Shown piece after piece: positions 30,133 through 48,902 of a DNA stretch of 64,000 nucleotides; position 1 is the first letter of the stretch, and the number at the start of each line of letters is the position of its first letter. The stretch comes from Escherichia phage AV126: the sequence record OR352956.1. One strand, 5' to 3'. The notes beneath the pieces are model-generated. The model saw only the letters and a program-made list of their open reading frames with translations. It did no database searches and had not been told where the DNA came from. The translations under genes and the position numbers were made by a program.

Positions 30133-30603
30133 TTAATCTGATTGCCAACCACTTGCCGTTTTGGTCCATAATCTTTGATTATCTGACCCTCTGAAAGGTT
30201 TTGTAGTTGGATTGTTTATTTCATACTTTCCGTCTACAATAATGTCAACAAGATTTTTAATATACAAAGGCACTTCCTCAAAAGTATATCCTGTATACAC
30301 CATTATATCTTTGCTTGACCCATAAACGTCTCTAACCTTTTCTATAAGGTTTTTAACATTGTAAATATTCTGCGGATCTAATGGCTCTCCTCCTAAAATT
30401 GTTAAACCTTTTACAAACGGTCTTGACAAATCTTTTAAAACTTGCTCTACATTTTCGTGAGTGAACGGTTTCCCATAAGAATAAGACCAGGCTTTTTGGT
30501 TAAAACAGCCACGACAACCGTGGCTACAACCACTAACCCAGAGGGAGCACCTAACTCCCTCACCATTAATAAGATCTACAGGTTCATATCCTGCAAAATT
30601 CAA
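30133..30603 (-). CDS. nrdG: anaerobic ribonucleotide reductase activating protein (radical SAM)
   Basis: 156 aa; CSHGCRGC; N-terminus collinear with E. coli NrdG. Confidence 0.9.
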   Translation of the reverse strand: MNFAGYEPVDLINGEGVRCSLWVSGCSHGCRGCFNQKAWSYSYGKPFTHENVEQVLKDLSRPFVKGLTILGGEPLDPQNIYNVKNLIEKVRDVYGSSKDIMVYTGYTFEEVPLYIKNLVDIIVDGKYEINNPTTKPFRGSDNQRLWTKTASGWQSD

Positions 30604-32414
30604 AGATGTTTCTCCCTTTGCAAAACTTCCTGCATTTTACCTTTGTTGTAAGGCCGTGAATTAGGGGCAGAAAGATACCCTGATACACGTCTAACTACAG
30701 AAATAGTTTCTTCTTCATGGTTGCCACAATCAGGACACTCAAACCCTTTAGCCGTTGCCTTAAATTCTCCATGAAAACCACACTTAAAGCATTGATCCAC
30801 GGGCTGATTAATACCAAAATAGTGAATATGTTCATAAGCGTAGTCTACTAAAGTCTCCAAAGCTTCTAAGTTATTCTTTAAGTTTGGTGTTTCGACATAA
30901 CTTATGTTACCACCATTGCTAATCTGTGCAAAACCTGCTTCATAATCCCATTTTTCAAAAGGATTTGTTACCAACCAAACAGGTTGATGAAAAGAGTTAG
31001 TAAGATAGTCTCTTTCTACCAAACCTGGGTATTTTTCATTTAAAGCTGTTGCAAACTTATAGCACAAAGATTCTGCTGGAGTTCCATAGAGACTAAACGC
31101 CAGGTTAGATCGTTCTTTAAACACAGCACACACATCTTTCATATGTTGCAGAATGTTTTTACCAAGTTCCTTTTTATCTTTTTCTTCTGGATAAAGGATT
31201 TCCAAAGCTTCGGCAAGACCTACATAACCAATACTAATAGAAGCATAACCACCTTCAAACAAAACACCAATTTCATCATTGGCATTTAAACGCGCTAAAG
31301 CCCCTTCCATGAAAAGAATAGGGTTTTCAGATGCTTTGGTATGTCTGATACGGTTTACACGTAGCATGTGAGCATCGTAGGCTATCTCCATATGTTTATT
31401 AAGAAGATCGGTGAAAGATTCTCCTTTACTTCTCGCTTCCGCAGCAATCAGTGGCAAATTGATAGAAACTACTCCAAGGTTGAATCGTCCATCATATTTT
31501 TCTCCTTGTTCGGTGGCATAGTACGACAAAAAGGAACGACAACCCATACTCGTAACAGTACCATCTGCTGATCCCGTAACTTCTTTGTTCAAAGGAACAG
31601 AAATAAAGTCTGGATAAATACGATCAGCACAACATGCCAAAGCTTGTTGCTTAAGGTCATAGTTAGGATCACTAGGTTTCATGTTAACACCTTCTTGTAA
31701 AAAGAAAATAACTTTAGGGAATACAGGCGTTACATGATCTTTGCCTAGACCATTACTATGCACTTTAAGATAGTTAGCTGTGATCATTCTGCCAAAAACA
31801 GAGGTATCCAGACCCATACTGATTGTAATAAAAGGAGATTGTCCATTTACACTCATTAAAGTATTAACCTGATACAAGAGAGTTTGCATAGCATCATATA
31901 CATCTTGTTCGGTCATTTCCAGGGCTTCTTTCCTTGCATAACAGCCGTAGCGACGTTTGGTTATCTCCATGTTTTTAAGGAAACTAGCTTCAACATAAGG
32001 ACTAAGACCTTTATCAATGTGCGCACACGTTTGACCTCCATACTGACTGGAGGCAACAGCTTGAATGATTTGAGTTAGCACTGTAGTAGCTACCCCAATA
32101 GATTTTGGTTTTTCTATCTGTGCGGCTCCGATCTTAAAACCATTCTCTAACATATCTTGATAATTAACAAGACAACAGTTTGTAAGAGGAGAGAGCAGAT
32201 AATCCAAGTCGTGAATATGCCCAAAACCTTCTGTATGCCATTCTGACAAGTTTTTTGGCAGTATCTGTGTCATTGCCATATGTTTGCTTAAAATCCCCGC
32301 CAAGAGATCCCTATGCGTGTTAACGAGGTGGGAAGGTTTGTTTGCATTCTCTCTAGTGTATGTTTCTGAAGTGCGATCTAAAAAAGAAAAAACATCTTGG
32401 TACAAATCTTTCAT
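30600..32414 (-). CDS. nrdD: anaerobic ribonucleoside-triphosphate reductase
   Basis: 604 aa; C-terminal Zn ribbon CFKC...CPDC and glycyl-radical RVSGYL; ATGA overlap with nrdG. Confidence 0.9.
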   Translation of the reverse strand: MKDLYQDVFSFLDRTSETYTRENANKPSHLVNTHRDLLAGILSKHMAMTQILPKNLSEWHTEGFGHIHDLDYLLSPLTNCCLVNYQDMLENGFKIGAAQIEKPKSIGVATTVLTQIIQAVASSQYGGQTCAHIDKGLSPYVEASFLKNMEITKRRYGCYARKEALEMTEQDVYDAMQTLLYQVNTLMSVNGQSPFITISMGLDTSVFGRMITANYLKVHSNGLGKDHVTPVFPKVIFFLQEGVNMKPSDPNYDLKQQALACCADRIYPDFISVPLNKEVTGSADGTVTSMGCRSFLSYYATEQGEKYDGRFNLGVVSINLPLIAAEARSKGESFTDLLNKHMEIAYDAHMLRVNRIRHTKASENPILFMEGALARLNANDEIGVLFEGGYASISIGYVGLAEALEILYPEEKDKKELGKNILQHMKDVCAVFKERSNLAFSLYGTPAESLCYKFATALNEKYPGLVERDYLTNSFHQPVWLVTNPFEKWDYEAGFAQISNGGNISYVETPNLKNNLEALETLVDYAYEHIHYFGINQPVDQCFKCGFHGEFKATAKGFECPDCGNHEEETISVVRRVSGYLSAPNSRPYNKGKMQEVLQREKHL

Positions 32415-39946: not shown

Positions 39947-40200
39947 TTTACTTCCCCTTTGTAATCGGACACTATACCAGGTCTTACTTTTGCCTTAAGA
40001 TGTTTCAACTCTGCCATAGGAGTTGCCACTTGTATAGGGTTAACTTCAACCTCGTAGATAGTATACTCATAACCCGCATACTTCCCGATGGAATGCAGGT
40101 ATTTGATAGCATGTTCAGGTGAATCTGCTTCAACATACCCCAAATCTTTTGTAGTGCGGCCTTCACAGTCGCCTTCTGTAGTTACGTGATAAAGTGTCAT
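39943..40200 (-). CDS. hypothetical protein
   Basis: 85-aa ORF. Confidence 0.45.
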   Translation of the reverse strand: MTLYHVTTEGDCEGRTTKDLGYVEADSPEHAIKYLHSIGKYAGYEYTIYEVEVNPIQVATPMAELKHLKAKVRPGIVSDYKGEVK

Positions 40201-40520
40201 AAAACCTCCTTCTTGTTGGCTGCTTCAATCATAGCGTTAAGAGTCTCCATACCGCTTTCAACTGCTTGAGCAATCTCTTGGAACACAGACTTCTTAAAGA
40301 TGTATAAAGACCCTGCCTGTAAGCGTTGCACACAACATAAGATCGCTTGGTGATCCATCAGGAAGTCGCCGTAGGCTGAATCAATCTTACCTGTAATTGG
40401 GTTGTCTCGTGAGCGAGGATCGTATTCTAATGTGATATGCGTTACACCAGGTAAAGTAACAAACTGACAACGGATGTTGACACGTGGTGTAATTGACACG
40501 CTAAACAGGCTGTTTGACAT
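40197..40520 (-). CDS. hypothetical protein
   Basis: 107-aa ORF, RBS GAGGAGG. Confidence 0.45.
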   Translation of the reverse strand: MSNSLFSVSITPRVNIRCQFVTLPGVTHITLEYDPRSRDNPITGKIDSAYGDFLMDHQAILCCVQRLQAGSLYIFKKSVFQEIAQAVESGMETLNAMIEAANKKEVL

Positions 40521-40667
40521 TTAAACCTCCTCGTAGTAAGGTAAAGCTTTAATCAATTGTTCTGAAGCGCCATTCTCTATCCATGTAGCCCCGTTGTCAA
40601 GAGAAACATACCCTTTCTTATCGATAAATTTACGGAGACAACCAGTGAACTTGTTTTTGTAGATCAT
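40521..40667 (-). CDS. hypothetical small protein
   Basis: 48-aa ORF not in track; ATGA overlap with upstream stop. Confidence 0.35.
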   Translation of the reverse strand: MIYKNKFTGCLRKFIDKKGYVSLDNGATWIENGASEQLIKALPYYEEV

Positions 40668-41107
40668 TTCTTCTTTCCTTTCTTTAATTTGTTGTGACCT
40701 TTACCCTTATAAAGCTTGTGATTACGAGCAGACGGGTTATTTTGGTTATCCAGTCGGCTAATAGGTGTCTTCCAAAGATTCCCTGCTACAAAAGAGGCTG
40801 CCACAAGTTCTTCCAGGTATACAAAATCCAAAGCAGGTATCTTTGTTTCCCTTATCTCGCGTTCTACATTAGACAACACGCCTTCTTCCTTACTGTCTTC
40901 TTTTTCAATTACAGACCAACCCTCTTCCTGCCAAGCTTCCCCTCTGAACCAAGTTTCCATGTTATAACCTTGTTCGTCGAGAATAACACCATCTCGCATC
41001 TCAAACCATTCGCCACCACAAAAATGGCGGTGCTCAACACGTCTACCTTCCTTCATTGCTTCTTTAGCTTCGGGCCAAGTCAGTTTGATGTTTTGGATGT
41101 TTTGCAT
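40664..41107 (-). CDS. hypothetical protein
   Basis: 147 aa, Lys-rich C-terminus; first gene after divergent promoter. Confidence 0.5.
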   Translation of the reverse strand: MQNIQNIKLTWPEAKEAMKEGRRVEHRHFCGGEWFEMRDGVILDEQGYNMETWFRGEAWQEEGWSVIEKEDSKEEGVLSNVEREIRETKIPALDFVYLEELVAASFVAGNLWKTPISRLDNQNNPSARNHKLYKGKGHNKLKKGKKK

Positions 41108-41137
41108 TTGTTTTCTCCTTTTGTTTGGTAGGAGTTG

Positions 41138-41165
41138 ATCTTAACAAGATTAAAAAGTATGTCAA
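41138..41165 (-). promoter_or_regulatory. sigma70-type promoter for minus-strand block
   Basis: TTGACA, 16 nt, TAAGAT on minus strand. Confidence 0.55.
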
Positions 41166-41168
41166 TAC

Positions 41169-41196
41169 TTGATCTGAAATTATTTTCAGGTATCAT
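41169..41196 (+). promoter_or_regulatory. sigma70-type promoter for plus-strand block
   Basis: TTGATC, 16 nt, TATCAT; back-to-back with minus promoter. Confidence 0.45.
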
Positions 41197-41221
41197 GTAT
41201 GAACATTAACAAGAGAGGTAG

Positions 41222-41515
41222 ATGATGAACATTACTTTAGCAACTAAGAATATTTCTGAAACAATTAACGGTTTTGGTGTTATTGTAGCCTTGCACGGTA
41301 ACAACGAGAAATGGTTGGCTTCTTTTGAAGAGGATCGTCAACACAACATCATTTTAGACGCTCCTATAAAAGTTATGCATATACTTGGTGAAAACAAAGT
41401 GCTCACTTCCTCCCGTTCAAAGGAACAAATTACAAACGAATTAGTAAAACTGCTTGACAATGTTCTTAACATGTTTGATAATGCACCCATCGATACAAAA
41501 CGTGTCTTAATGTGA
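41222..41515 (+). CDS. hypothetical protein
   Basis: 97-aa ORF. Confidence 0.5.
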   Translation: MMNITLATKNISETINGFGVIVALHGNNEKWLASFEEDRQHNIILDAPIKVMHILGENKVLTSSRSKEQITNELVKLLDNVLNMFDNAPIDTKRVLM

Positions 41516-41527
41516 GAGGAGAACAAA

Positions 41528-41815
41528 ATGTACTATTCACAAGACGAAGCAGCAAACATTAAACTGGCAGTGGGCGATCTTATTGTGTCACCTAACTACC
41601 ATTGGGATAACACAGACTTGGTTGAAGTAGTAACCCATGTTGGAGTTGAAGGTATTGTGCTCTACACACTAGGTGGAGGTGTTGTTGGGGAAATGGAACG
41701 TTATACAACGACCAAGAAACTGGTAAGCTCTTATCGCATGTTTTTACACCAAGGTTCTGAAGAGTATACAGCTTTCTTGTCGAAATTAGATGCAGATCGG
41801 GAGAATGCACGATGA
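41528..41815 (+). CDS. hypothetical protein
   Basis: 95-aa ORF, RBS GAGGAG. Confidence 0.5.
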   Translation: MYYSQDEAANIKLAVGDLIVSPNYHWDNTDLVEVVTHVGVEGIVLYTLGGGVVGEMERYTTTKKLVSSYRMFLHQGSEEYTAFLSKLDADRENAR

Positions 41816-42168
41816 AAATTGTACACGATGAAATTCAAATAGAAGAAAGTGACCTGATGGATTTGGATGCAGCTTTGGGGAAGGTAATCTATGCAGGAAT
41901 TAAAGCCTTCCGTGAGAAGGCAAACAATAGCACGTTTGTCATGATCCCCACTAAACTGATGCGTGTTTTGTATCCAAATAGAAGTGCGCCGTATACAGAT
42001 GAAGAAGAGGAGACAGGTAGAAGAGAGTGGTTAAATATTTTAGAAAAGATGGAGAATGCTTTTATTGATAGTGGTAATCCAGAAATCGTGTATGCTGAAG
42101 ATCAAAGGAAGGCACGGTTAGAGGGCCGTCTTTTATTCGCTAGTTATTTTGATAATCTTTGGAGCTAA
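41812..42168 (+). CDS. hypothetical protein
   Basis: 118-aa ORF, ATGA overlap. Confidence 0.5.
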   Translation: MKIVHDEIQIEESDLMDLDAALGKVIYAGIKAFREKANNSTFVMIPTKLMRVLYPNRSAPYTDEEEETGRREWLNILEKMENAFIDSGNPEIVYAEDQRKARLEGRLLFASYFDNLWS

Positions 42169-43310: not shown

Positions 43311-43667
43311 ATGAAAAAATTAATCTTAGCCACATTGCTGGCTACCGTAAGCTTCACCACTTACGCTCAAAAATTTGTAGCAGTTAAAACGGATATTGGT
43401 AAAGATGTTGTGATCACAGGCAACAAGTTTTACTATACACCTGGGAATGGTGTTCTAGAAGAGTGCAAAGATGTTGAGGCATATACAGGAAAAGAAGATA
43501 ACACGGAACGTCCTTTTTATTCGATTATAGCTACTTGCAAAAATGAAATAGTAGCTATTAAACAATACAAAGATGCCCCTGGAGGAGAATACTTATTAGT
43601 CAAGAATATTAAGAGTGAAAAAACTGCAAAGTTTACAGTAATTATTTTAAAAGGAGAAACGTTCTAA
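43311..43667 (+). CDS. secreted hypothetical protein
   Basis: Start re-set to MKKLILATLLATVSFTTYA signal peptide. Confidence 0.5.
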   Translation: MKKLILATLLATVSFTTYAQKFVAVKTDIGKDVVITGNKFYYTPGNGVLEECKDVEAYTGKEDNTERPFYSIIATCKNEIVAIKQYKDAPGGEYLLVKNIKSEKTAKFTVIILKGETF

Positions 43668-44806
43668 TGAAATACACTATTTTTGGAGATGTAGCGGTTG
43701 TAAATAAGGAATATGGCGTTGAAGCTAATAAACTTCCTGCTGGAGTTTGGGTTGTCAACTGCGATCCGCACGGTAACTACTCTTTAGTGCGTGGCGAAAG
43801 TTTCTCTCTTCCGAACACTCTTTATGGGGAAACTAAAGACCGCGCCGCACATGTTATTAAAACATTTGCTCGTCGTAGTAAAGAAGGTAAAAATACTGGG
43901 GTGTTACTGACAGGGACAAAAGGCAGTGGTAAGACGATGTTAGCTAAACTGATTAGCATGTCTCTAATGTCCACAGAAGGTTTAGGTATTCCAACCATTT
44001 TGGTTACACAGCCTTACACAGATGCTGGCTTCTTAGAATTTATGAGTAAAATTACAGATCGTGCTGTTGTTTTATTTGACGAATTTGATAAAGTGTACGC
44101 TAAGAAAGAAGATCAGGAAGCACTGTTGACCTTGTTGGATGGAACAGGAAGTGGGAATAAACTTTACATCCTCACTAAAAATAGTGGTTATATCTCGGAA
44201 TATTTTGTAAACCGTCCTAGTCGTATCTACTACAGTTTCAATTACGATAAACTGTCTAGTGAAACTATGTTAGATTACTTGGATAAGAACTTGGTAAATA
44301 AAAAGCACGTAGATAACTTCCAACGTTTATGGGATGTTAGCACAGAGTTGTCTTTCGATGTTATTCAAGGCATTGTAGAAGAATTGAATTTCTATCCAAA
44401 AATGACTTTTAAAGAATGTCTTGAAATGATGGGTATTTCTTTAGGGAACGATGCTAAATGGAATGTGGCTTCTATCGTAGCTAATGGCAAAACCTTGAAG
44501 GTGAATTGGATCAATAACTGGCACGACTTCACCCCTACTAAGTTTTTGTCGGGTGCTTGTTCCCTGAACATCTATCTACAAAGTTTGAAAGATGATGAAG
44601 TGGAAGCAATGGAAACCAACAGTTATGTTATCCTGGATGAAGATGGTGATCCACATATTGATCTATGTGCAACGGCTGATGGTCTAACTTGTGATCTGAT
44701 TGAAGGTGGTAAGATTCTGGTTATGAGCACTACACCAGGAAACACTTTGCGAGTGGTGCTGGAGCCTGTAACACAACGTTCCACTACACTTGGTAGCGTG
44801 TTCTAA
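43667..44806 (+). CDS. AAA-type ATPase
   Basis: 379 aa; Walker A GTKGSGKT, Walker B VVLFDEFD. Confidence 0.6.
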   Translation: MKYTIFGDVAVVNKEYGVEANKLPAGVWVVNCDPHGNYSLVRGESFSLPNTLYGETKDRAAHVIKTFARRSKEGKNTGVLLTGTKGSGKTMLAKLISMSLMSTEGLGIPTILVTQPYTDAGFLEFMSKITDRAVVLFDEFDKVYAKKEDQEALLTLLDGTGSGNKLYILTKNSGYISEYFVNRPSRIYYSFNYDKLSSETMLDYLDKNLVNKKHVDNFQRLWDVSTELSFDVIQGIVEELNFYPKMTFKECLEMMGISLGNDAKWNVASIVANGKTLKVNWINNWHDFTPTKFLSGACSLNIYLQSLKDDEVEAMETNSYVILDEDGDPHIDLCATADGLTCDLIEGGKILVMSTTPGNTLRVVLEPVTQRSTTLGSVF

Positions 44807-44809
44807 TAA

Positions 44810-44835
44810 AGATGCCCCGCAAGGGGCATTTGTTA
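44810..44835 (+). terminator. rho-independent terminator
   Basis: ATGCCCC-gcaa-GGGGCAT then TTGTTAT. Confidence 0.55.
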
Positions 44836-44894
44836 TGGAGGGATTTTAGTTATTCTTTTGTTGTAGGCTCGCACTAATAGCTAAAGGGGGAGGT

Positions 44895-46355
44895 GTGCCA
44901 AAAATAGTCACTTGGGAACAATATAAAACAGATATAAAACAAGCTTATCAAGGTAAGTCTTGGACTGTTGTAGATTATATTGAGCCGTGGAACGGCAATA
45001 AAACTAAACTTAGATGCATCTGTGCTCTGCATGGAGAATGGAAAACAACAAGCATAAATACCGCTAAACTAGGGAGGGGTTGTCCAGAATGCGGTAGGGA
45101 GATTATAAGTAAAGCAGTATCTATAAACAAATCAAAAACCTGGGAGCAATATAAAGAAGAAGTGCAAACCGCTTACAATCAGGCAGGTAAGTTTTGGACT
45201 GTTACAGGATGGCACGGAGAATGGAAAGGATGGAATACTAAACTGGTTTGTTGTTGTGCTTTACATGGGGAGTGGAGGTCTACTTCTATATCTTCTGCGA
45301 AAAACGGGAGTGGATGCAGGAAGTGTATGGGAGAAGCAAACAGAGAAAGAACATCGATTGCATGGGAGAAACATAAAGAAGAAGTAGAAGAAGCTTATAA
45401 AGAAAAACCCTGGATTGTTAGAGGCTATGTGGAACCGTGGAACGGTTCCCGCACTAAGTTGATTTGTGAGTGTAAGGTTCATGGTCAATGGTGCACTACC
45501 ACTGTAAACAGTGCTAAACAAGGGACTGGATGCTACAGTTGTCAAAGAGAAATGACGAAACAAAGGAATACAATGGAGGATAAACAACATGTTGAAGATT
45601 TTATAAAAGCTTGTCCTGATAATGTAGAGCGTAAATATTATCGTAGCGATAGAGTAGATAGATTAGGTCGTCAGGTTTACTGGATTGTAGAATGTCCTAT
45701 ATGTGCAGAGGATGATTATTGTAAAGAAGGCTTATGCGATAATAAATTTGAGATGAAGATGAGTCATTTGAAAAGGGGTGGCCTTCCTTGCCGTTGTTCT
45801 AAATATTATCATTACACTCCTGAACAATGGGCCTACCGTATGACCAAAGCTTGCCAGGAACGAGGGGATCAATTTATAGGATTCATTGATAAGGTAAGCA
45901 ATAACAGCAAGTTTAAATATCTATGTAGGGAGCATGGAGAGCAAACGATCACACCTACCGATTATCTCAATGGGAAAGGTTGTCCAGGCTGTAAGAACAG
46001 AAATATGCAAGAATTTTACATCAATATTATTCTTGATGAGTACGGAGAAGACACGGGAGCTTACAAGTTGGGGATTGCAAAGGACAGTGATATCAGGATC
46101 AAAGGGCAGAATGCAAACAACAATTACTTTATGCGCCGTATAGCATTGTTCGATCTGCCGTCCTACCAAGCTTGCAGGGCGTTAGAGAGTAAGCTAAAGT
46201 CTAAGACTGATCAGATTCTACCGTCTATTGGCTGTGTAGAACGCTTGCACATGAAAGATGGTCATAGTGAAACCTTCCTGCGCGAGGATTTGGCTATCGT
46301 CTTAAGTGCTATCAACCAAGCAGGTGGAATAATGAGAGAGGAGGAAACATGTTAG
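44895..46355 (+). CDS. zinc-ribbon repeat protein
   Basis: 486 aa; three tandem ~70-aa units each with C-x-C...HGxW...SAK-x-G-x-GC-x2-C; probable GTG start. Confidence 0.55.
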   Translation: MPKIVTWEQYKTDIKQAYQGKSWTVVDYIEPWNGNKTKLRCICALHGEWKTTSINTAKLGRGCPECGREIISKAVSINKSKTWEQYKEEVQTAYNQAGKFWTVTGWHGEWKGWNTKLVCCCALHGEWRSTSISSAKNGSGCRKCMGEANRERTSIAWEKHKEEVEEAYKEKPWIVRGYVEPWNGSRTKLICECKVHGQWCTTTVNSAKQGTGCYSCQREMTKQRNTMEDKQHVEDFIKACPDNVERKYYRSDRVDRLGRQVYWIVECPICAEDDYCKEGLCDNKFEMKMSHLKRGGLPCRCSKYYHYTPEQWAYRMTKACQERGDQFIGFIDKVSNNSKFKYLCREHGEQTITPTDYLNGKGCPGCKNRNMQEFYINIILDEYGEDTGAYKLGIAKDSDIRIKGQNANNNYFMRRIALFDLPSYQACRALESKLKSKTDQILPSIGCVERLHMKDGHSETFLREDLAIVLSAINQAGGIMREEETC

Positions 46356-46727: not shown

Positions 46728-46907
46728 ATGGCACGTTTAGCAGATCATGAAATCTTTAAACCTATTCTGAACCACTATGATGAACTTAAAGCAGTGTTGG
46801 ATTGTTATAGAGAGGATGAAGAACGTTTGGAAGTCAATCTTAAGATAGTTCTGATGAAAGCTTTTCAAGACGGGCAAGCTAAAGTTTTAGAAGGCATGAA
46901 AAAATGA
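46728..46907 (+). CDS. hypothetical small protein
   Basis: Start re-set to MARLADHEIF after RBS AAGGAGA. Confidence 0.5.
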   Translation: MARLADHEIFKPILNHYDELKAVLDCYREDEERLEVNLKIVLMKAFQDGQAKVLEGMKK

Positions 46908-47446
46908 GAATAACTGATGAATATGTATTCTTCTTTTCACATAAAGATGTGTTTAGTAATTGGTATATTGCACCCTTTACAGAAACTGAACTAGGTTACA
47001 ATGAGACTTTCTGTTGTGTTGAGCAATATATGATGTGGCGTAAGGCTTTGCTGTTCAAGGATCATGCGATTGCAGCAGCTATCCTTGATCACTCAACTAT
47101 ACGTGACAACGAGAGGAAACAAGCATACTACAAACGTATGGGTCGAGCGGTATCTGGTTTTAATAATGATATGTGGGAAGAGAACCGTGAGCGTATTGTT
47201 ATGCGAGGCTTATGCTTGAAATATGTACAGAATCCAGATTTGTATGCAGACTTACACCTTTACCAATACAAAACGTTTGTTGAAGCAAGCCCCTACGATA
47301 AGGTTTACGGAATTGGAATGGGGATGTATGAACCAGGGGTGCTAAACCCTGCTACCTGGAAAGGGCAGAATCTTTTAGGCAAATATCATAATAAACTGAT
47401 CGAAATACTTTTCCCAGACAAAATACCGCAAAGACGATATTTGTGA
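46904..47446 (+). CDS. NADAR-domain protein (YbiA-like)
   Basis: 180 aa; FSNW, VEQYMMWRKALLF, KRMGRAVSGF, VEASPYDKVYGIGMG collinear with E. coli YbiA. Confidence 0.75.
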   Translation: MRITDEYVFFFSHKDVFSNWYIAPFTETELGYNETFCCVEQYMMWRKALLFKDHAIAAAILDHSTIRDNERKQAYYKRMGRAVSGFNNDMWEENRERIVMRGLCLKYVQNPDLYADLHLYQYKTFVEASPYDKVYGIGMGMYEPGVLNPATWKGQNLLGKYHNKLIEILFPDKIPQRRYL

Positions 47447-48518: not shown

Positions 48519-48626
48519 GGTATCGCCCTTTCTTTGATGTGCGCCCTGGTTGGCGCGGTAGAAAGATAATAGCCCTTTTCTTTATATATAGCAAGCAAAA
48601 AGAAAATAAAAAAGATTGAAAAATGG

Positions 48627-48683
48627 TTGACGTTAACCAGGCGGCGGCGTAGTATTCATCTTATAGGGCGGCAATGGTGCCGC
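48627..48683 (+). promoter_or_regulatory. promoter-hairpin cassette 1
   Basis: TTGACG, 17 nt, TAGTAT, then GGCGGCA-atgg-TGCCGC. Confidence 0.6.
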
Positions 48684-48704
48684 TCACTATTTGGAGTTAA
48701 GATC

Positions 48705-48902
48705 ATGGCAACATTGCACATTGTGGCGAAAGCTGGACAAATCAACGTAGTGGTAAACGGTTTTACTGAGTTCAGTCACCCCCAGGATGATCATGAAACG
48801 GTTTTATCTTTCATTGATTCCCTGTTAGAAATGGGAGTCATTACAGAAGACCAGCACGCTACAAAATGCAAGCGCGTTAATCAAATTGCAGGAATAGAAT
48901 AA
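48705..48902 (+). CDS. hypothetical small protein
   Basis: 65 aa from ATG after RBS GGAG; track ORF begins at the TTG of the -35 box. Confidence 0.55.
   Translation: MATLHIVAKAGQINVVVNGFTEFSHPQDDHETVLSFIDSLLEMGVITEDQHATKCKRVNQIAGIE

Follow-up and report, generated by a model that had tools for sequence, protein, structure and literature searches.

Proteins that join arrays of repeated CapR/DUF723 zinc fingers to a T5orf172 nuclease domain have been described (PMC8096241, PMC10448857). According to Barth, Dunham and Seed (2023), zinc-finger domains of the CapR, DUF723 or DUF4397 type (the 'DUF4397' of this count is DUF4379 elsewhere in that paper and in Pfam) occur in 87% of 229 T5orf172 HEGs, in many cases as several repeats arranged like 'beads on a string' (PMC10448857). 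Recombination between repeats alters their number, as in a 228-bp in-frame deletion in ICP1 gp174, and also shuffles modules between HEGs (PMC10448857). Netter et al. (2021) placed ICP1 Gp165 among the CapR-domain/T5orf172 putative homing endonucleases of that phage (PMC8096241), which also include its paralogues Gp174, Gp121, Gp53 and Gp130 (PMC8096241, PMC10448857). The same authors showed that the four conserved cysteines of CapR, the capsid repressor of the Vibrio cholerae phage satellite PLE, are needed for DNA binding (PMC8096241). The ICP1 T5orf172 protein Odn cleaves DNA, for which a conserved glutamate is needed (E180A; Barth et al. 2021, PMC8263062).

Here, we show that a gene of Escherichia phage AV126, a phAPEC8-like myovirus of Phapecoctavirus, is an ordinary member of this published and already annotated phage homing-type endonuclease family. 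It lies in a 64,000-nt stretch of record OR352956.1 (the window), and its open reading frame, reported as a gene in an earlier note on this DNA, is borne out both by a mechanical ORF list and by a CDS at the same coordinates in Klebsiella phage ZCKP1 (RefSeq NC_047994) that is labelled 'endonuclease'. Most GenBank submitters label the gene 'hypothetical protein', as against the 'endonuclease' of RefSeq. In 18 GenBank/RefSeq phage records (among them ZCKP1, ESCO13, nieznany and Schickermooser) the 1461-nt gene stretch recurs at 99.7-99.9% identity, and four further phage records have it at 98.2%. We regard the assignment of its domains, CapR zinc modules followed by a T5orf172/GIY-YIG nuclease, as secure with high confidence (Table 1). 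The gene product is probably a site-specific DNA endonuclease of the CapR-zinc-finger/T5orf172 type (GIY-YIG superfamily), free-standing and of homing type, and homing is a plausible and, on balance, likely biological role. We infer zinc binding, DNA binding and cleavage, as well as the target and actual homing. Directly 5′ of the gene lies a P-loop/AAA-type ATPase gene (43667-44806), in agreement with the earlier note; the NADAR gene (46904-47446; TIGR02464, E = 4e-33), which that note had placed next to it on the other side, is the third ORF downstream.

Table 1 Features of the endonuclease gene and its cassette in the AV126 window
Feature	Coordinates	Strand	Details
GC-rich hairpin	44812..44829	+	terminator-like, weak T tail, right after ATPase stop codon
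Exchangeable cassette	44810..46338	+	intergenic leader and nearly whole endonuclease ORF; blastn boundaries
Endonuclease ORF	44895..46355	+	486 aa; GTG start; stop TAG at 46353-46355
R1, CapR-type zinc module	44895..45137	+	aa 1-81; candidate ligands C41/C43(/H46) + C63/C66
R2, CapR-type zinc module	45138..45359	+	aa 82-155; candidate ligands C119-C121(/H124) + C141/C144
R3, CapR-type zinc module	45360..45584	+	aa 156-230; candidate ligands C191/C193(/H196) + C213/C216
M4, diverged CapR module	45585..45818	+	aa 231-308; CxxC...CxC order, C267/C270 + C299/C301
M5, CapR module	45819..46007	+	aa 309-371; C344/H347 + C363/C366
T5orf172-like GIY-YIG nuclease domain	46008..46352	+	aa 372-486, C-terminal
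Shared 3′ tail (…EEETC*)	46339..46355	+	GAGGAGGAAACATGTTAG; holds RBS and ATG (46349) of next gene

The protein as a whole matches the Pfam CapR homology domain (PF21817) in five stretches, with 100.2 bits against a gathering cutoff of 24.2, and PHROG 681 'endonuclease' over residues 5-483 (E = 8.5e-83); PF05265, which describes related zinc modules, is precomputed on all homologues. Relatives were found by tblastn in 388 phage records (Vibrio 144, Escherichia 124, Klebsiella 39), many of which carry the label 'putative homing endonuclease', and an exhaustive HMMER scan of the protein library returned 9004 cluster representatives at E ≤ 0.001, 1858 of them at ≤1e-10, with up to 10 matched stretches in one protein (P0056, for example). 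The size of the family, together with the published architecture, makes the architecture a common and already known one, and the protein, which had at first gone unrecognised, belongs to a described family by its Pfam and PHROG matches and by the literature (PMC8096241, PMC10448857). No NCBIfam model matches it and a search of solved structures found none resembling the zinc modules, as would be expected of a novel zinc-ribbon regulator or nuclease scaffold; against recognition by Pfam, PHROG and RefSeq, relatives in such numbers, a published description (PMC10448857) and homology to ICP1 Gp165, such novelty is already refuted and we give it next to no credence.

The 486 residues include 28 cysteines in regularly spaced pairs. 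Three tandem Cys-rich repeats, as first noticed from the sequence, occupy residues ~1-81, 82-155 and 156-230, each with a CxC and a CxxC pair, and are 44-52% identical in pairwise comparison (BLASTP E = 2.7e-27, 5.2e-30 and 3.6e-26, of the order of 1e-26 to 1e-30), far beyond chance. The motif first given for them holds in part: EPWNG is present in repeats 1 and 3 and is GEWKG in repeat 2, and SAK is TAK in repeat 1. Scored singly against Pfam CapR, R1 exceeds the cutoff (E = 8.1e-6, 26.4 bits) and adds faint matches to DUF723 and DUF4379 ('probable treble clef zinc finger'), and R2 and R3 fall just under it (E = 1e-4 for each, 22.9 and 22.8 bits).

As DNA, the repeats are old, with 58-60% nucleotide identity among R1-R3 and 38-52% at third codon positions, and TRF detected no ~225-nt tandem array at the repeat period. 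This divergence and the absence of such an array indicate that the conservation of the repeats at the protein level reflects selection rather than recent duplication. Single modules from other alleles are nearer to R2 (63-69% identity) than R1 and R3 are (48-54%), which points to module shuffling over simple duplication in place; with third positions near saturation as well, we disfavour in-place tandem duplication as the origin of R1-R3.

In an alignment of 24 homologues, C193, C213 and C216 of R3 are invariant and the fourth ligand of R-type modules is variable, being a cysteine at -2 or a histidine at +3 or +4. The AlphaFold2 model of R3 (pLDDT 90.9) is an alpha-beta-beta-beta-short alpha arrangement in which C191/C193 lie at a strand end and C213/C216 at the N terminus of helix 214-225. 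Metal binding, implied when the repeats were called zinc-ribbon-like, is probable, but a classical ribbon does not fit this placement of the second cysteine pair, and the modelled secondary structure suggests a treble-clef-like fold for the R-type module.

The remainder of the chain has more cysteine pairs, as the earlier note had it, and measures ~256 rather than ~200 residues, accommodating two further zinc modules and a nuclease domain. Each of these modules by itself passes the Pfam CapR cutoff (M4, E = 1.7e-10, 41.3 bits; M5, E = 1.6e-9, 38.2 bits), M5 resembles R1 (BLASTP E = 2.4e-7), and all four ligands of M4 and all four of M5 are invariant in the 24 homologues. The protein thus shows the CapR hallmark of two conserved ligand pairs 20-30 residues apart, in the order CxxC...CxC or a permutation of it. 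The ligand order of M4 is also that of PLE CapR, a member of the same zinc-module family (PF21817); CapR differs in being a 15.5-kDa single-domain protein without a nuclease, compared with the five modules and nuclease domain of the AV126 protein. Related zinc modules in long tandem arrays also occur in DUF723/DUF4379 'treble clef' repeat proteins: in two of them, P0027 and P0028, we count 7-8 R-type modules, and the C-terminal domain of P0027, on a reading of its sequence, looks like a Vsr/PD-(D/E)XK-type nuclease and not T5orf172.

ICP1 Gp165 is a closer parallel. An N-terminal CapR zinc-module array precedes a C-terminal T5orf172 domain in both proteins, which are 29% identical over 320 aa spanning R3-M4-M5-nuclease (E = 2e-29). 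Gp165 has four CapR domains, and its T5orf172 score is sub-threshold (18.0 bits), like that of the AV126 protein. The differences are that Gp165 comes from a Vibrio phage and the AV126 gene from a Phapecoctavirus, with Enterobacteria as hosts; that the Gp165 module preceding M4 has lost its cysteines, whereas the AV126 allele keeps three well-conserved N-terminal repeats with intact ligands; and that, unlike the ICP1 case, the AV126 slot lies in an accessory-gene region after the ATPase gene and not beside an essential module. I-TevI and the T4 Seg proteins are GIY-YIG homing endonucleases to which we found no significant sequence similarity. The domain order of I-TevI is the reverse, with its nuclease N-terminal and that of the AV126 protein C-terminal. 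The DNA-binding part of I-TevI consists of a Zn finger, a minor-groove helix and an HTH, unlike the array of five CapR modules found here.

Some 20 residues do not vary even in relatives with as little as 32% identity, and the nuclease domain has invariant Y375, K391, G393, R401, Q405, N406, E459 and T460. Y375 falls at the 'GIY' position, K391-x-G393 at the 'YIG' position and R401 in the first helix; R401 and E459, which are likely to be catalytic, are also kept in ICP1 Gp165. The domain is confidently predicted to adopt a GIY-YIG fold, a three-stranded sheet flanked by helices. Its match to Pfam T5orf172 (PF10544; 12.8 bits, E = 0.17, profile positions 3-86 of 101) lies under the gathering cutoff of 20, as do the scores of 15 of 17 relatives (best E = 0.0022). 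A PDB sequence search with the nuclease-domain profile returned no GIY-YIG protein, the sole match being a spurious one to CD4 (E = 1.2). An hhalign comparison of the family profile with an approximate sequence of the I-TevI catalytic domain covered 11 columns and was non-significant; it pairs G393...R401 with the YVG...R27 segment, and on that basis R401 and E459 would be putative equivalents of I-TevI R27 and E75.

Sub-threshold T5orf172 scores would also suit a protein in which the nuclease has decayed and only DNA binding is left, that is, a CapR-like transcriptional repressor. CapR is itself a repressor derived from the CapR/T5orf172 family (PMC8096241), and I-TevI autorepresses too (cited in PMC8263062). 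We nevertheless consider a nuclease-dead regulator highly improbable: the C-terminal domain is confidently modelled as GIY-YIG, CapR has no nuclease domain at all, and ~20 invariant residues, R401 and E459 among them, survive in alleles with no more than 32-39% identity, which speaks for catalysis being under purifying selection. Of the functions first suggested, a nucleic-acid-binding regulator or a nuclease scaffold, the nucleic-acid-binding and nuclease-related character probably stands, and the scaffold gives way to a protein with its own GIY-YIG-fold catalytic domain.

The gene occupies a sharply bounded, exchangeable slot. Homology by blastn to phAPEC8, UP17 and tuntematon stops at 44809-44811 and restarts at 46323-46339, within flanks that are 93-99.9% identical. 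The 5′ edge is three to five bases past the ATPase stop codon, and at the 3′ edge the end of the ORF runs into the RBS and ATG of the gene that follows, which explains the common ...EETC C terminus of otherwise unalignable alleles. UP17 illustrates the swap, with a downstream flank 99.9% and an ATPase gene 98.9% identical to those of AV126 and an unalignable cassette between them. The ATPase gene and the downstream genes occur in 64-70 phage records, at 97-99.8% and 88-99.9% nucleotide identity, respectively, whereas the AV126 endonuclease gene is matched by megablast in only 26 phage records. In others the slot is filled by a different 'endonuclease', as in phAPEC8 (394 aa), UP17 (400 aa), tuntematon (332 aa) and phiWec179 (337 aa), with 35-67% amino acid identity to the AV126 protein.

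Across ~30 genomes, the gap between the flanking genes falls into three classes, 1055-1073, 1244-1295 and 1543-1544 nt, which by a repeat HMM correspond to one, two and three R-type modules, respectively; M4, M5 and the nuclease domain come next in every case. The AV126 allele is the sole three-repeat form in the compared set, and one more may be encoded by phage ALITA, whose relative measures 460 aa. The variation in repeat number at this locus is like that of ICP1 gp174 (PMC10448857), and the slot behaves in line with the HEG turnover and domain shuffling reported there. Loss or disruption of the ORF in close relatives, which the earlier note would have counted against its reading, takes the form of divergent replacement alleles and of a deletion in one phage, EP57, as a mobile endonuclease would lead one to expect.

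Some allele sits in each of the complete phapecoctaviruses examined and no clean empty site turned up, so the classical presence/absence signature of active homing is missing. The only record without the gene is that of EP57 (Escherichia phage vB_EcoM_EP57, OR544956), which we rejected as an empty site because its deletion (44797-46336) is imprecise, takes the ATPase C terminus with it, shows only 2-nt microhomology and is accompanied by other deletions. In this 130.7-kb record, the cassette junction is at 1796/1797, a second deletion removes window positions 46840-47211, part of the NADAR region, and the annotation is broken into tiny CDSs, so that the record reflects either a deletion mutant or an assembly problem.

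Constant occupancy of the locus would be explained if the enzyme were a domesticated weapon nuclease, which, like ICP1 Odn, would cleave competitor phage, satellite or host DNA and diversify its array in an arms race. The locus is filled in every complete phapecoctavirus that we examined, its alleles are strongly diversified, the putative catalytic residues are conserved, and the re-use of T5orf172 nucleases against satellites has precedent (PMC8263062, PMC10448857). Set against this, the AV126 protein has only a generic CapR array without RepA_N or another target-mimicking domain, a known satellite or target is lacking, and sharp cassette swaps within near-identical flanks are what HEG turnover predicts; we therefore consider the weapon role unlikely, although less so than loss of nuclease function.

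For the preferred reading, that of a homing-type endonuclease, we propose that five independently folded Cys4 or Cys3His zinc modules would be strung along the DNA as beads on a string, each touching a few base pairs. The array, made up of the three paralogous N-terminal repeats and the two diverged modules kept in every allele, would read an extended target and place the C-terminal GIY-YIG-fold domain, with R401 and E459 as its likely catalytic residues, to cut nearby. During mixed infection, the enzyme would cut genomes with a different allele at the ATPase/orf slot, and recombinational repair would then copy the AV126-type cassette in; such cutting and copying would explain both the sharp cassette boundaries and the turnover of alleles. 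Gain, loss and shuffling of N-terminal modules, giving one, two or three copies, would yield a retargeted enzyme.

On a bolder proposal, the slot after the ATPase gene would be a genus-wide, always-occupied 'allelic arms-race' locus in which rival endonuclease alleles oust each other and in which whole modules (one, two or three copies) are gained, lost or swapped, each change resetting the target in modular and roughly additive fashion. We hold this to be speculative and rather doubtful; if true, it would constitute a natural programmable DNA-recognition array with a logic like that of C2H2 zinc fingers or TALEs, built on a structurally unsolved fold. To our knowledge, no solved structure or recognition code exists for CapR-type zinc modules. 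The value of the locus as a discovery is small, given a large described family and an existing RefSeq label; the analysis corrects the 'hypothetical protein' labels of most GenBank phapecoctavirus records and marks a hotspot of recombination and mosaicism in phages employed in therapy and biocontrol. Mild novelty lies only in the natural series of one-, two- and three-repeat alleles with sharp boundaries and near-identical flanks in Phapecoctavirus, which could be a convenient test bed for CapR-type DNA reading.

The leader within the cassette offers few regulatory signals. The GC-rich hairpin behind the ATPase gene was picked up by a terminator scan on the minus strand and is the sole stable element in the RNA fold centroid of the leader, and other alleles have a different hairpin, AAACCCGCTTCGGCGGGTTTT, in its position. 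The leader RNA is no more stable than its shuffles (z = -0.4), and a promoter scan upstream of the endonuclease gene found no sigma-70-like promoter.

Two further records show unusual copies. On a 22-kb metagenomic contig, a single 669-aa ORF (P0002) comprises two complete one-repeat endonucleases by fusion or read-through, residues 1-334 being of the AV126 clade and 335-669 of the phAPEC8 clade; some phages would thus carry tandem or fused alleles at such loci. In Escherichia phage WPEC1 (PV659873.1, 161 kb), seven matches to the endonuclease query and three to the ATPase query point to assembly duplication or rearrangement.

Elsewhere in the window, a tblastn search for paralogues of the cysteine repeats gave only a weak match at 30723-30854 (E = 0.026), which we rejected as a relative since it is the C-terminal zinc site of anaerobic ribonucleotide reductase NrdD; from their translations, we take the genes at 30133-32414 (minus strand) to be those of NrdD (604 aa) and its activase NrdG (156 aa). 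The divergence from ZCKP1 downstream of the endonuclease gene was considered as a breakpoint at the 3′ end of the gene and rejected, because the mismatches cluster within the NADAR gene at 47000-47400. There, 64 differences (mismatches and gap positions) fall in 400 nt, compared with 0-2 per 200 nt in the surroundings, forming a small mosaic patch within this NADAR/YbiA-like gene; a second sharp divergence or indel patch, with 114 differing or gapped positions in 200 nt, lies at 48600-48800. Between 47447 and 48166, ~700 nt hold only short mechanical ORFs, and the RefSeq relative has no annotated CDS there; ARAGORN found no tRNA and Rfam no family in this segment, around which GC is slightly raised (0.44 for 48-50 kb). 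At ~40000-42000, the GC skew turns from negative to positive, with plus-strand ORFs from about 41.8 kb onward, and, by analogy with the minus-strand genes annotated in the equivalent part of ZCKP1, transcription would seem to diverge here, ~3 kb upstream of the endonuclease gene.
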